From IMG/VR virus record IMGVR_UViG_2703719355_000008: a stretch of 7,973 nucleotides of DNA. The stretch is one strand, 5' to 3'. Source of the stretch: a virus. Its lineage: Duplodnaviria; Heunggongvirae; Uroviricota; Caudoviricetes. Positions 2,957 to 5,081 of this stretch are shown piece by piece (the stretch's first letter is position 1; every line of letters begins with the position of its first letter). The translations under genes and the position numbers were made by a program. The notes under the pieces were generated by a model, which saw only the letters and a list, made by a program, of their open reading frames with translations, had not been told where the DNA came from and made no database searches.

Positions 2957-3024
2957 TGCTGCGGGTGCTTGAGGCTGTCTGCCTCGGGCATGCCGCCGTA
3001 AGGCAGACAGAGAAAAGCCCCAGT

Positions 3025-3083
3025 TAACATTACGCGTCCGGCAAGACGCTTAACATTAATCTGAGGCCATATCTATGACTTGC
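3025..3083 (-). ncRNA. sok: Putative Sok-like antisense RNA (approximate bounds)
   Basis: Minus-strand promoter-like hexamers: -35 TTGCCT (complement of 3113-3118), 17-nt spacer, -10 TAACCT (complement of 3090-3095), giving a start a few nt inside mok and transcription into the hok leader. This matches the known hok/sok layout. The 3' end is not defined; a GCGTC/GACGC stem lies at 3043-3058. Confidence 0.35.
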
Positions 3084-3287
3084 ACATGTAGGTTAGCCTC
3101 TTACGTGCCGAAAGGCAAGGAGAAGCAGGCTATGAAGCAGCAAAAGGCGATGTTAATCGCCCTGATCGTCATCTGTTTAACCGTCATAGTGACGGCACTG
3201 GTAACGAGGAAAGACCTCTGCGAGGTACGAATCCGAACCGGCCAGACGGAGGTCGCTGTCTTCACAGCTTACGAACCTGAGGAGTAA
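3075..3287 (+). CDS. mok: Mok-like overlapping reading frame (70 aa), in frame with hok
   Basis: ATG at 3075 with SD-like TGAGG 8 nt upstream; N-terminal extension MTCTCRLASYVPKGKEKQA precedes the hok Met, as in chromosomal mok/hok pairs (from memory). Confidence 0.5.
   Translation: MTCTCRLASYVPKGKEKQAMKQQKAMLIALIVICLTVIVTALVTRKDLCEVRIRTGQTEVAVFTAYEPEE
3132..3287 (+). CDS. hok: Hok/Gef-family type I toxin (51 aa small membrane toxin)
   Basis: Translation MKQQKAMLIALIVICLTVIVTALVTRKDLCEVRIRTGQTEVAVFTAYEPEE carries the Hok/Gef signature (TM helix, TRKDLCEV, conserved C-terminus) and is near-identical, from memory, to E. coli HokD/RelF. AAGGAG SD at 3117-3122. Confidence 0.9.
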   Translation: MKQQKAMLIALIVICLTVIVTALVTRKDLCEVRIRTGQTEVAVFTAYEPEE

Positions 3288-3355
3288 GAGACCTGGCGGG
3301 GGAGAAATCCCTCGCCACCTCTGATGTGTCAGGCATCCTCAACGCACCCGCACTT

Positions 3356-3385
3356 AACCCGCTTCGGCGGGTTTTGTTCTTTTTG
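3356..3385 (+). terminator. Rho-independent terminator of the hok transcript (copy 1 of a 23-bp repeat)
   Basis: Stem CCCGC-TTCG-GCGGG (3358-3371) followed by a T-rich tract TTTTGTTCTTTTT. Confidence 0.75.
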
Positions 3386-3427
3386 TGAAAAAAATTCCCT
3401 TAAAGGAGATTTTTTTAACTAAAAAGG

Positions 3428-3455
3428 TTTACTTTGCTTTCGTATATGGTAAATT
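3428..3455 (+). promoter_or_regulatory. Putative promoter of the HTH/peptidase cassette (-35 TTTACT 3428-3433; extended -10 TGgTAAATT 3447-3455)
   Basis: Hexamers read by eye in an AT-rich intergenic region. An imperfect inverted repeat (3485-3501, CTTGC-gttag-GCAAG) lies between the predicted start site and the SD and could be an operator. Confidence 0.3.
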
Positions 3456-3531
3456 TTAGGAATTAGAATTTAAGCGCCCATCAGGCTTGCGTTAGGCAAG
3501 TCTGCTAAATCAACAAATTGAGGATAAAATC

Positions 3532-3891
3532 ATGGCACTCACTGAATTCGGTAAGGCCGTTAGAAAAGCGAGGATCGATACTGACAGTACTCTTCTGACT
3601 ATGTCTCAAGAACTGGGCACTACGCCAGCGTTTCTTAGCGGTTTAGAAACTGGTAGCAAAAAAATACCTCTGAAGTGGGTTAAGAAGATTGATTCTTACT
3701 TCAAGGCCAAAGGTGTAGAAATTGAAGGGTTACAGGAGTTAGCGGCAGTTGCGAATGACTCAGTTCCAGTAAACGGTTTGTCTCAGCAACAGAAAATGCT
3801 TGTAGCGGGATTCGCTAAGTCGCAGTTTACGCCGGAACAGCTAAAGAGTTTTGCAGATTTATTGCAAAAGATTAATAACAATGAGGGGTAA
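3532..3891 (+). CDS. XRE/Cro-type helix-turn-helix transcriptional regulator (119 aa) with C-terminal extension
   Basis: ATG at 3532 with SD GAGGAT at 3521-3526. N-terminus (LTEFGKAVRKARIDTDSTLLTMSQELGTTPAFLSGLETGSKKIP) fits the HTH_XRE pattern. Stop at 3889-3891 is 2 nt before the next gene. Confidence 0.85.
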   Translation: MALTEFGKAVRKARIDTDSTLLTMSQELGTTPAFLSGLETGSKKIPLKWVKKIDSYFKAKGVEIEGLQELAAVANDSVPVNGLSQQQKMLVAGFAKSQFTPEQLKSFADLLQKINNNEG

Positions 3892-3893
3892 TT

Positions 3894-4370
3894 ATGTATC
3901 AAATGAGAGGTAACAGGGTGTCACCGATGCAAGAAGAAGAAATAGCCTACAGAGCTATAAACTTCTGTAATGCTATTGGTCTTACAGCCTCAAAGCGCAA
4001 AAGAAAGCGTTATGATATGTTCTTTGAAAGCCTGTCAATTTATGGGGTTACTCTTGACGTCAGGACCGACAAAGAGTGGGAGGCTCTGACGTATGATCTA
4101 ACTATCGGACATTGTGACCCCGCTTCTCTAACAATTACGGTTCCCAATAAAATATATGTGAATGCTTGCCTTGGGGAAGAGCATGCACTTGCTGTTATCT
4201 TCCACGAGCTAGGTCATTTGCTTCTTGGACACAAAGCAGTTTTACACTTTTCAGTTAAAGAACCTACTCGTATTGAGGATGCAGAATGGCAGGCAGATAC
4301 ATTTGCGGATATCGTACTGGAAACAATTGGCGTGAGAACACAACAGATGTCGTTCGATTTTTATATGTAA
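3894..4370 (+). CDS. ImmA/IrrE-family (COG2856-like) zinc metallopeptidase (158 aa)
   Basis: SD GAGGGG at 3884-3889. HExxH zinc-binding motif FHELGHLLLGH at residues 103-113 (nt 4203-4217), with size and partner arrangement typical of ImmA-like peptidases paired with XRE regulators. Confidence 0.8.
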   Translation: MYQMRGNRVSPMQEEEIAYRAINFCNAIGLTASKRKRKRYDMFFESLSIYGVTLDVRTDKEWEALTYDLTIGHCDPASLTITVPNKIYVNACLGEEHALAVIFHELGHLLLGHKAVLHFSVKEPTRIEDAEWQADTFADIVLETIGVRTQQMSFDFYM

Positions 4371-4371
4371 A

Positions 4372-4396
4372 AGCCCTGCGCTAACAGGGCTTTTAG
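4372..4396 (+). terminator. Rho-independent terminator after the peptidase gene
   Basis: Stem AGCCCTG-CGCTAA-CAGGGCT followed by TTTTA. Confidence 0.65.
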
Positions 4397-4498
4397 GGAC
4401 GGAAAGTGCGCTAACACATTCCGTAGTGTATGGAGATAATCCAATCACAACACTTTTTGTAGACAAGCGAAGTGTAGTGGTTCTCCCAACAAAGTGCA

Positions 4499-4518
4499 AC
4501 CTGTGTGGATTCACAGGT
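4499..4518. promoter_or_regulatory. Perfect inverted repeat ACCTGTG-tggatt-CACAGGT 20 bp upstream of the Cys-rich ORF
   Basis: Read directly: 7-bp arms, 6-nt spacer. Candidate operator or leader hairpin. Confidence 0.35.
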
Positions 4519-4537
4519 GAGCAGGGAAAACGAAATC

Positions 4538-4687
4538 ATGGCAATGGGTACCTGTCGCAAATGTGGCTGTCCATGTGAGATCATTTTTCGCTACTCTGTG
4601 TGTGTAGATGGTGTAATGCGCCACGCGAAAAAAGGGAAGCCTTTCCCGATCCCACTTTGCAGTTGTAGTGGCAAGCACGCAGCTTGA
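4538..4687 (+). CDS. Candidate Cys-rich small protein (49 aa; CxxCxCxC ... C ... CxC)
   Basis: ATG at 4538 with stop TGA at 4685-4687; 7 Cys in 49 aa (MAMGTCRKCGCPCEIIFRYSVCVDGVMRHAKKGKPFPIPLCSCSGKHAA). Weak SD. Followed by its own terminator. The track's longer version (GTG 4505) would start inside the palindrome. Confidence 0.4.
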   Translation: MAMGTCRKCGCPCEIIFRYSVCVDGVMRHAKKGKPFPIPLCSCSGKHAA

Positions 4688-4703
4688 TGTTCAGTACTGA
4701 CAA

Positions 4704-4731
4704 AACCCGCTTCGGCGGGTTTTGTTTTTTC
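4704..4731 (+). terminator. Rho-independent terminator (copy 2 of the 23-bp repeat)
   Basis: AACCCGCTTCGGCGGGTTTTGTT at 4704-4726 is identical to 3356-3378 and is followed by a T-run. Confidence 0.75.
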
Positions 4732-4802: not shown

Positions 4803-5081
4803 ATGGCGCACAATACCAAATCACACAATTCTGATAATTCAGCTGTCTTTGCCAGCAGGCACGGGCGGCGTTCCCGCACATTCAAATCTGATTGGTACCA
4901 GCATCCCCCATGTACTGAAGAACAAGCTGAATGGCTAATTCAGTGCTACCGCAGACACGGATACGGGATTAAGAAAGCCCTCAGCCTCGATTATCGTCAC
5001 TGGATAATCTCCGTCAGGCTTCCTTACTCTGAACGCCCACCGCGTCCGTCCCGCACATTCCAGCAACGCATCTGGAGGTAA
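4803..5081 (+). CDS. Hypothetical phage protein (92 aa)
   Basis: In-frame ATG at 4803 chosen because the track start at 4722 overlaps the terminator. Stop TAA at 5079-5081 is 1 nt before the next gene's GTG, implying translational coupling. Confidence 0.55.
   Translation: MAHNTKSHNSDNSAVFASRHGRRSRTFKSDWYQHPPCTEEQAEWLIQCYRRHGYGIKKALSLDYRHWIISVRLPYSERPPRPSRTFQQRIWR

Follow-up and report, generated by a model that had tools for sequence, protein, structure and literature searches.

Few two-gene modules are as common on mobile elements as pairs of an XRE-type repressor and an M78 (ImmA/IrrE-family) zinc metallopeptidase, and what such pairs put out is seldom known. For cleavage of the repressor by the protease there is precedent (PMC2701414; PMC13228613), and in CapP and IrrE the peptidase is accompanied by helix-turn-helix (HTH) and GAF domains, with single-stranded DNA (ssDNA) bound in the interdomain groove (PMC13228613). 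Three-component Xre-COG2856 systems were predicted by Makarova, Wolf and Koonin (2009; PMC2701414), and in the sole direct test, in which COG2856 proteins were overexpressed in S. pneumoniae and E. coli, these proteins were non-toxic (PMC4257102). Here we describe a cassette built around such a pair in a 7,973-nucleotide (nt) stretch of Caudoviricetes DNA (IMG/VR virus record IMGVR_UViG_2703719355_000008), the whole of which is referred to below as the window.

The pair alone would be ordinary, because PGAP already annotates both of its genes, as ‘helix-turn-helix domain-containing protein’ and ‘ImmA/IrrE family metallo-endopeptidase’. What is new is a conserved, unannotated third gene, together with a structured RNA whose loops switch in concert; in the literature we found no mention of this trio or of the E. 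coli accessions. The block is best explained as a self-contained, horizontally mobile prophage ‘moron’ made up of a promoter/operator, an XRE repressor, an M78 protease, a leader, a small protein and a terminator, and comparative evidence defines its output as a family of basic proteins of 31–51 amino acids (aa), almost never called by gene finders.

A conserved trio on a mobile cassette

The trio was followed through 196 loci collected with our own hidden Markov models, the peptidases being clustered at 80% identity; in the contig scan a single-protein query returned nothing and an alignment query succeeded. In the core set of 45 lineages, with peptidases 32–86% identical to that of the window, the HTH gene lies upstream in 44 (the remaining locus is a contig edge), and a small basic protein of the window's type, here called type 1, is encoded in 43, on the same strand and 131–275 nt after the peptidase. 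The order HTH, M78, leader, small basic protein spans Enterobacterales, Pasteurellaceae, Vibrio, Neisseria and Cupriavidus, and the cassette reaches prophages of pathogenic E. coli, Klebsiella, Yersinia, Neisseria meningitidis and Haemophilus. A further 33 lineages are more distant relatives, with the HTH gene upstream in 32 and weak type-1 matches downstream in 8.

Most loci without the type-1 protein have another short, very basic open reading frame (ORF) at the same place, and two further sequence types were distinguished (L195 3149-3319; L078 3156-3305; L081 2745-2894; L089 3008-3157; L062 3065-3286; L073 3115-3324; L075 3097-3204; L076 3244-3339). Behind such related HTH-M78 pairs, one of these families reads APKGFRWIFCRYRKVRG...YGYExWxFLVRC and the other V(R/H)V(R/I)xYxR(F/Y)RxGxxExVxxHxRSxP. 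At one locus (L038) a 298-aa DUF8370 gene takes the place of the small protein.

In the window the inserted block occupies ~3383-4730, between two copies of a hok-type terminator that form a 27-nt direct repeat (Table 1). Homology with cassette-free genomes, lost at the left edge, picks up again at exactly 4704, and the right-hand copy of the repeat is assigned to the cassette because it is present after the cassette in every other genomic context. The GC content of the cassette is 0.424, against 0.496 and 0.532 in the flanks. Across a sample of 5,426 complete E. coli genomes the cassette is present in 48. In 2,669, some of which hold a different insert of ~665 nt, matches span at least 80% of a synthetic empty-site query, in which the hok end was joined to the side of a 92-aa ORF. 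This synthetic junction is contiguous in related prophages (H71-H75), with identity up to 99.2%. We hold the anatomy and the mobility of the cassette with high confidence.

A preliminary description of this DNA, made before any database search, had recognized an AT-rich, acquired insert carrying the pair. This stands: in related prophages hok runs straight into the 92-aa ORF, and the cassette is not a fixed core component of them. The limits it gave, 3390-4400, truncate the unit, which includes the Cys-rich small ORF and ends at ~4730. The cassette does have its own terminator, as had been proposed; this lies at the far end of the block (Table 1), and the hairpin after the peptidase is instead a helix of the leader. 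Taken as a whole, the earlier interpretation is partly supported.

Table 1. Features of the cassette and its left border (window coordinates)
Feature	Coordinates	Strand	Remarks
Resident hok terminator	3356..3382	+	Left-hand member of the 27-nt direct repeat; cassette-free prophages are homologous up to ~3384
Candidate operator, 17-bp dyad TTAACTAAAAAGGTTTA	3415..3431	+	Overlaps the -35 of the cassette promoter
Inferred sigma-70 promoter	3428..3455	+	-35 TTTACT 3428-3433, 16-nt spacer, TG-extended -10 TAAATT 3450-3455; position kept across divergent cassettes
Hairpin in the 5' untranslated region (5'-UTR)	3482..3504	+	Upstream of the HTH gene's Shine-Dalgarno (SD) sequence; compensatory changes judged by eye
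XRE-type HTH protein, 119 aa	3532..3891	+	N-terminal HTH and highly conserved C-terminal region
Single-domain M78 (ImmA/IrrE-family) zinc metallopeptidase, 158 aa	3894..4370	+	HExxH, Pfam, conserved residues
Structured leader RNA, in the 167-nt spacer between peptidase and small ORF	4368..4537	+	Folding, covariation, covariance model
Leader hairpin 1	4370-4393	+	Loop CGCUAA 4379-4384
Leader hairpin 2	4399-4424	+	Loop CGCUAA 4409-4414
Decoy UAUGGAG	4428-4435	+	In hairpin 3, 4431-4443
Leader hairpin 4	4444-4481	+	
Anti-SD UCUCCC	4482-4487	+	UCUCC core invariant
Leader hairpin 5	4496-4522	+	
SD of the small ORF, AGGGAA	4523-4528	+	
Unannotated small ORF, 49 aa, basic (isoelectric point (pI) 9.2), Cys-rich: MAMGTCRKCGCPCEIIFRYSVCVDGVMRHAKKGKPFPIPLCSCSGKHAA	4538..4687	+	Codon periodicity; conservation behind M78
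Intrinsic terminator of the cassette	4699..4730	+	12-bp stem and T-run; contains the right repeat copy, near-identical to the left, 4704-4730; shared across contexts

The cassette belongs to a lambdoid prophage integrated beside potC and sits in its nin region, in the order hokD, cassette, 92-aa ORF, DUF968, rusA, Q. Elsewhere the cassette is found among tail genes in a Mu-like prophage from Neisseria, in a P2-like region, beside integrases, and at prophage ends adjoining dinI, SRAP and umuDC. ImmR/ImmA-type pairs do act as such a switch for ICEBs1 and for numerous phages of Gram-positive bacteria (PMC2701414), and by that precedent the cassette would be the prophage's own lysis-lysogeny switch, an ImmR/ImmA system proper governing lambdoid induction. 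We regard this as scarcely credible: the cassette is a nin-region accessory far from the prophage's separate regulator genes (at ~12.9-14.1 kb of locus L001), most prophages that otherwise resemble this one are without it, and in other elements it lies among tail genes or at prophage ends. Nor is the suggestion that it controls the Q operon supported, since the cassette has its own terminator and recurs in Mu-like prophages, P2-like regions and other prophages without Q.

Genes for SRAP (YedK-like), dinI and umuDC stand one to three genes away from the cassette in several unrelated contexts (L026-L029, L037/L061, L039/L040, L002/L019), SRAP in 4, DinI in 5 and UmuD/C in 2–3 of the 45 core lineages. 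Moron hotspots used in common, or a theme of DNA damage, may lie behind this proximity. A link to DNA-damage genes, which are within 3 kb in only ~9–10 of the 45, was judged too weak and set aside. No defense operon adjoins the cassette in the contexts examined.

The small basic protein and its leader

Among divergent copies, and counted from the conserved ATG at 4538, the variable columns of the small ORF distribute over the three codon positions as 14/9/41 of 50 codons, a periodicity that is not seen in the 33 nt before this ATG; judged by this pattern, the small ORF is under purifying selection. C6, C9, C13, C22, C41 and C43 are invariant among close relatives. The ORF is without annotation in E. 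coli and in Klebsiella phage ST13-OXA48phi12.4, where the deposited annotation misses it (L002 9005-9154) and instead places a 62-aa ‘hypothetical protein’ across the end of the peptidase gene and the leader (L002 8836-9024), a call that is probably spurious.

An exhaustive profile search gathered 16 representative clusters of 44–51 aa with the consensus CxKCGxxCE(V/I)IFR...FPIPxCxC. Homologues without these cysteines are encoded 3' of the peptidase in Neisseria, Cupriavidus and a metagenome-assembled genome, and zinc binding would therefore be an add-on of the enteric clade. Searches of Pfam, PHROG, NCBIfam and PADLOC with the small protein gave nothing beyond weak matches to a treble-clef zinc-finger family, seen in 5 of 15 members, and the AlphaFold2 (AF2) model has five short beta strands (pLDDT 78.8). 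All ten small proteins analyzed are basic and hydrophilic, with pI 9.2–11.9 and a grand average of hydropathy of -0.88 to +0.14. The protein is probably a nucleic-acid-binding effector that would be harmful if mistimed; that it is growth-inhibitory or defensive we put forward only tentatively. Should it prove to be an effector of defense, exclusion or host manipulation, the cassette would offer a compact and directly testable system.

A harmful product is central to one alternative, a three-component toxin-antitoxin (TA) or abortive-infection system of the kind envisaged by Makarova and co-workers, in which the small protein would be the toxin, the HTH protein would bind directly, serving as its antitoxin as well as its repressor, and on infection the antitoxin would be destroyed by the M78 protease. 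Xre-COG2856-toxin systems have indeed been predicted (PMC2701414), the cassette occupies moron-like or defense-hotspot-like positions with a patchy distribution, double gating suggests a dangerous product, and one source names a homologue ‘toxin’. Yet the third gene is neither RelE nor PIN and matches no toxin in Pfam, NCBIfam or PADLOC, in a Mu-like phage the small ORF stands without an HTH protein beside it, and the PADLOC matches are at motif level only. We consider this account improbable. As for the simpler suggestion that the HTH and M78 genes form a stand-alone two-gene TA or abortive-infection pair, it sits poorly with the conserved trio and with the non-toxicity of COG2856 proteins (PMC4257102). 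The Cys-rich ORF had also been proposed as a target of the pair. Here the proposal is favored, with the amendment that this ORF is an integral third gene in 43 of the 45 lineages and not a neighbor.

The leader that precedes the small ORF is conserved to roughly the same degree as the coding regions, and its folding is much stronger than that of shuffled sequences (z -4.0). With a covariance model derived from close relatives, matches over the full length and on the plus strand were obtained in ~26 lineages, including L047, where the upstream genes are unrelated. On the alignment fitted to this covariance model, which biases pairing and covariation counts, 89.4% of cells are paired, double changes are seen at 38 of the 46 pairs, and the covariation score is 0.269 as opposed to 0.105 when shuffled (0 of 500 shuffles reach it) and at most 0.056 with slid partners. 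When an unfitted MAFFT alignment is folded de novo with RNAalifold, hairpins 1, 4 and 5 emerge again and show compensatory changes. A scan against the 4,227 families of Rfam gave no match to the leader, with nothing in 4366-4545 at E <=1. Antisense RNA over the leader was considered and dropped: the minus strand folds better (z -5.9), but no minus-strand promoter was found, and G-U wobble pairs favor the plus strand.

Within the leader, the invariant UCUCC can pair alternatively with the SD of the small ORF or with an invariant upstream GGAG, which, read from the sequence, is the layout of a translational switch. That the leader gates translation of the small ORF is likely. The hairpin directly after the peptidase (4368-4395) is the first helix of the conserved leader; it is probably not a dedicated terminator, because its U-run is short and is absent in distant lineages.

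The loops of hairpins 1 and 2 are identical within a lineage and different between lineages: CGCUAA in 8 lineages, UUGACG in 6, UUGGCA in 2, and CUAGGA, CUUCGA, CUGCAA and CGUCAA in 1 each, the most widespread hairpin form having a UUGRCG hexaloop. Both loops are, we conclude, read by something. The cassette's own proteins were rejected as readers, in that no column of the HTH, M78 or small protein tracks loop class, and near-identical cassette proteins are found with different loop classes. A model in the manner of P4 or P1 c4 RNA, in which the matched loops would pair with one further site, was also discarded, as no lineage has a conserved reverse-complement site within the cassette. Loop-loop kissing, mimicry of transfer-RNA anticodons and loops acting as -35 hexamers each fail, by eye, for at least one major loop class. 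A broader reading, which we regard as fairly unlikely, is that leader and small protein constitute an RNA-addressed effector module in which the loops are a specificity code for a trans-acting partner outside the cassette and the XRE/M78 pair is a sensor of damage or infection; the whole would then be an undescribed system of defense or inter-prophage competition with exchangeable specificities.

Repressor, protease and the proposed switch

The HTH gene and the peptidase gene are separated by 2 nt, and ORF calls, Pfam, PHROG and PADLOC agree with the preliminary description on the presence and position of this XRE/M78 pair. For the HTH protein itself the Pfam matches are marginal (HTH_31, E 0.017; HTH_3, E 0.079); support comes from a PADLOC HTH_VI match at 1e-6 and from its family of 341 clusters, which sources name XRE/HTH. 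Its conserved C-terminal region reads LSxQQxMLVAGFAKSxF..EQL..FA.LL, and the variable columns of its gene among divergent copies (24/10/95 by codon position) indicate coding-type evolution. It is presumed to be both the autorepressor and the substrate of the protease.

Upstream of the HTH gene, nearly all lineages have the dyad TT(A/C)A(A/C)C-N5-G(G/T)TT(G/T)AA, whose right half forms the -35; in cassettes of the Neisseria type its place is taken by another dyad, TTCAAGTA-AAA-TACTTGAA. By its conservation, the window's copy is probably a functional inverted repeat. The promoter it overlaps falls under the threshold of a consensus scanner; a dyad on the -35 would be the usual layout of an autorepressed XRE promoter, and autorepression of the cassette by the HTH protein is accordingly worded here as very likely. 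An inverted repeat within a promoter of the pair's own had been pointed out before. The 22-nt repeat in question (3380-3424) exists, but it is probably not the operator, because its left arm falls outside the conserved block, and the probable functional element is the shorter dyad (Table 1). Farther downstream, pairing in the 5'-UTR hairpin is apparently kept by compensatory changes in divergent cassettes, the variants in the alignment being, by eye, CAGGCUUGC/GCAAGUCUG, CAGGUU/AACCUG and CAGGCC/GGCCUG.

The identity of the second protein as a member of the ImmA/IrrE/M78 families is borne out by profile search. The peptidase clears Pfam PF06114 (Peptidase_M78) marginally, scoring 24.6 bits where the gathering cutoff is 22 (E 2.4e-5); in PHROG it matches phrog_87, ‘metallo-protease’ (7e-17). 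Its HELGH motif occupies residues 104-108 (nt 4203-4217), and H104, E105, H108, H113, H118, E128 and E131 are invariant in 40 homologues with identity down to 37%. E131, within E-W-Q-A-D, aligns with the E of the CapP E-x-QAD and is, by this alignment, the probable third metal ligand. Variable columns in divergent copies of the gene fall 38/18/136 by codon position. PGAP starts the protein (WP_014640513.1) at an internal Met at 3927, 11 codons late; we take the true start to be the ATG at 3894, because the N-terminus MYQMRGxRV is conserved family-wide.

Among solved structures the best sequence match is CapP (7t5t), at E 0.06 and aligned across the motifs. The AF2 model is a single domain (pLDDT 86.9), for which Foldseek returns PprI (8sln) with probability 0.99 and IrrE (3dti) with 0.97, at TM scores of only 0.46–0.48 and E ~0.02; M. 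tuberculosis XRE-COG2856 regulators are also among the best relevant fold matches (probability 0.97–0.99, TM ~0.48), and the minigluzincin selecase scores about as well as PprI and IrrE. In architecture the peptidase resembles ImmA. By analogy with the described systems, it is somewhat more probable that the M78 protein cleaves the HTH protein than that it does not.

Lit cleaves EF-Tu, and a Lit-like exclusion protease would have a host or phage protein as its substrate, with the HTH protein serving only as its transcriptional regulator. Several homologues have precomputed Peptidase_U49 (Lit) matches, and there is a weak NCBIfam Lit match across the HExxH region. The latter reaches 11.4 bits against a cutoff of 274, however, M78, CapP and IrrE match better, and the obligate small ORF and leader would be left unexplained; we find this alternative highly improbable.

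The reading we prefer is that of an ImmR/ImmA-like autorepressed switch with a leader-gated small basic protein as its output, and we hold it about as readily as we doubt it. In this model the HTH protein, presumably as a dimer, would bind the dyad over the -35 and keep the operon repressed. A signal, which by analogy with ImmA, IrrE and CapP might be DNA damage or phage infection, would cause M78 to cleave the HTH protein, and transcription would rise and pass hairpin 1 into the leader. There the UCUCC anti-SD would hold the SD of the small ORF, with the upstream GGAG decoy as its alternative partner; because the anti-SD can switch to this decoy, translation would be gated a second time, and the 49-aa basic protein would be the output of the switch. 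That the HTH, M78 and small-protein genes form a single operon is, in our judgment, somewhat more probable than not.

Several observations weigh against the autorepressed switch. The protease is without the HTH and GAF domains that IrrE and CapP use to sense ssDNA, no structural or family analogue was found for the small protein, and an operon switch leaves the matched loops unexplained. Hairpin 1 is terminator-like in the enteric clade. Leader and small ORF are also found without HTH-M78 in a Mu-like phage (L044), 3' of an unrelated gene pair at L047, and recombining independently of the pair when the window is compared with L160, so that they may not depend on HTH-M78 at all.

The main rival builds on these same facts. 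It holds that two independent modules travel together, an HTH-M78 regulatory or TA-like pair ending at hairpin 1 and a separate leader with its small ORF, the latter having its own promoter and a trans-acting controller that reads the matched loops. Besides the occurrences at L044 without M78 and at L047 behind another pair, it draws on the mosaicism of the cassette (near-identical small proteins stand behind peptidases only ~54% identical), on the terminator-like hairpin 1 with its UUUU in the window, and on a loop class that follows none of the three cassette proteins. Set against it are the fixed order, strand and spacer with which the parts occur together, in 43 of 45 lineages and through several proteobacterial orders, the lack of any evident conserved promoter in the spacer, the missing U-run after hairpin 1 in distant lineages, and the single shared terminator that closes the block. 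On this evidence we regard two co-traveling modules as unlikely and retain the autorepressed switch.

At L044 (2156-2852) the leader, with a UUGACG-loop hairpin, and the small ORF lie upstream of a ribbon-helix-helix gene and mor, and the small ORF is preceded by a good sigma-70-like promoter, TTGATC-N17-TAGAAT. At L047 (1352-3138; also L048 and L049) the upstream pair encodes a 210-aa HTH_3 protein and, as its partner, a 273-aa protein that lacks HExxH and matches no family; the pair may be an alternative sensor module.

The neighborhood of the cassette has features of its own. Directly upstream lies a complete hok/sok locus (2963-3287), with the Rfam sok antitoxin RNA at 2963-3137 (114 bits), the only match in the Rfam scan of the window to clear its gathering score, and the hok/mok ORF at 3075-3287 (Pfam HOK_GEF, 2.9e-23). 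A weak isrK match over the hok 3' UTR and terminator (3296-3377; 27 bits, gathering score 50) is probably driven by the terminator hairpin. The junction between the hok terminator and the 92-aa ORF (~3383/4704) is an insertion hotspot: in other E. coli strains (L203, L204) it holds IS421 or the alternative insert of ~665 nt, which encodes the 130-aa hypothetical protein WP_000737636.1. The 92-aa ORF itself (4803-5081) has as its sole match phrog_1212, a family of unknown function, and holds a 19-nt imperfect direct repeat (4865-4883 and 5042-5060, 177 nt apart).

Comparison with described systems

The hok/sok mRNA with its fold-back, and the P4 CI and P1/P7 c4 RNA immunity systems, resemble the cassette in having a long structured leader that occludes the ribosome-binding site of a small ORF, as is predicted here, and short repeated elements that vary in identity between related elements. 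Unlike hok/sok, the cassette would yield a basic, hydrophilic product rather than a membrane peptide, and no antisense promoter was found; the small ORF does not show the marks of a type I TA system, a hydrophobic membrane peptide and a cis-antisense RNA. Unlike P4 CI and P1/P7 c4, no complementary third site was found for the cassette loops.

RosmerTA and the Xre-COG2856-toxin systems share with the cassette a protease-controlled Xre repressor, a third, effector gene and a home on mobile elements. In RosmerTA, however, RmrA is a fused HTH-peptidase of ~380 aa, whereas here the two functions reside in separate proteins of 119 and 158 aa and there is no RmrT; the PADLOC RmrA matches have E values of 1e-3 or weaker and cover ~40 residues around the motif. 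CapH/CapP, which is associated with CBASS and other defense operons such as BREX, and the DdrO/IrrE system of Deinococcus likewise combine an XRE repressor with an M78 protease. The cassette protease differs from CapP and IrrE in consisting of the peptidase domain only, without the Cys of the cysteine switch, and in place of an attached defense operon or DNA-repair regulon the output is a 49-aa protein. PADLOC scores capP at only E 0.0035 and capH at only E 0.0097.

There is a close likeness to ImmR/ImmA of the B. subtilis element ICEBs1, in which a repressor is followed in one operon by a single-domain HExxH protease of ~160 aa, under an autoregulated promoter (here inferred) and on a mobile element, with sequence similarity to the cassette limited to the metal-binding motifs. 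Two differences stand out. The cassette is an accessory insert in a proteobacterial prophage and not the master switch of its element, and it has an obligate small basic protein behind a structured leader, the concerted loop switching of which points to a specificity mechanism not described for ImmA-type switches.

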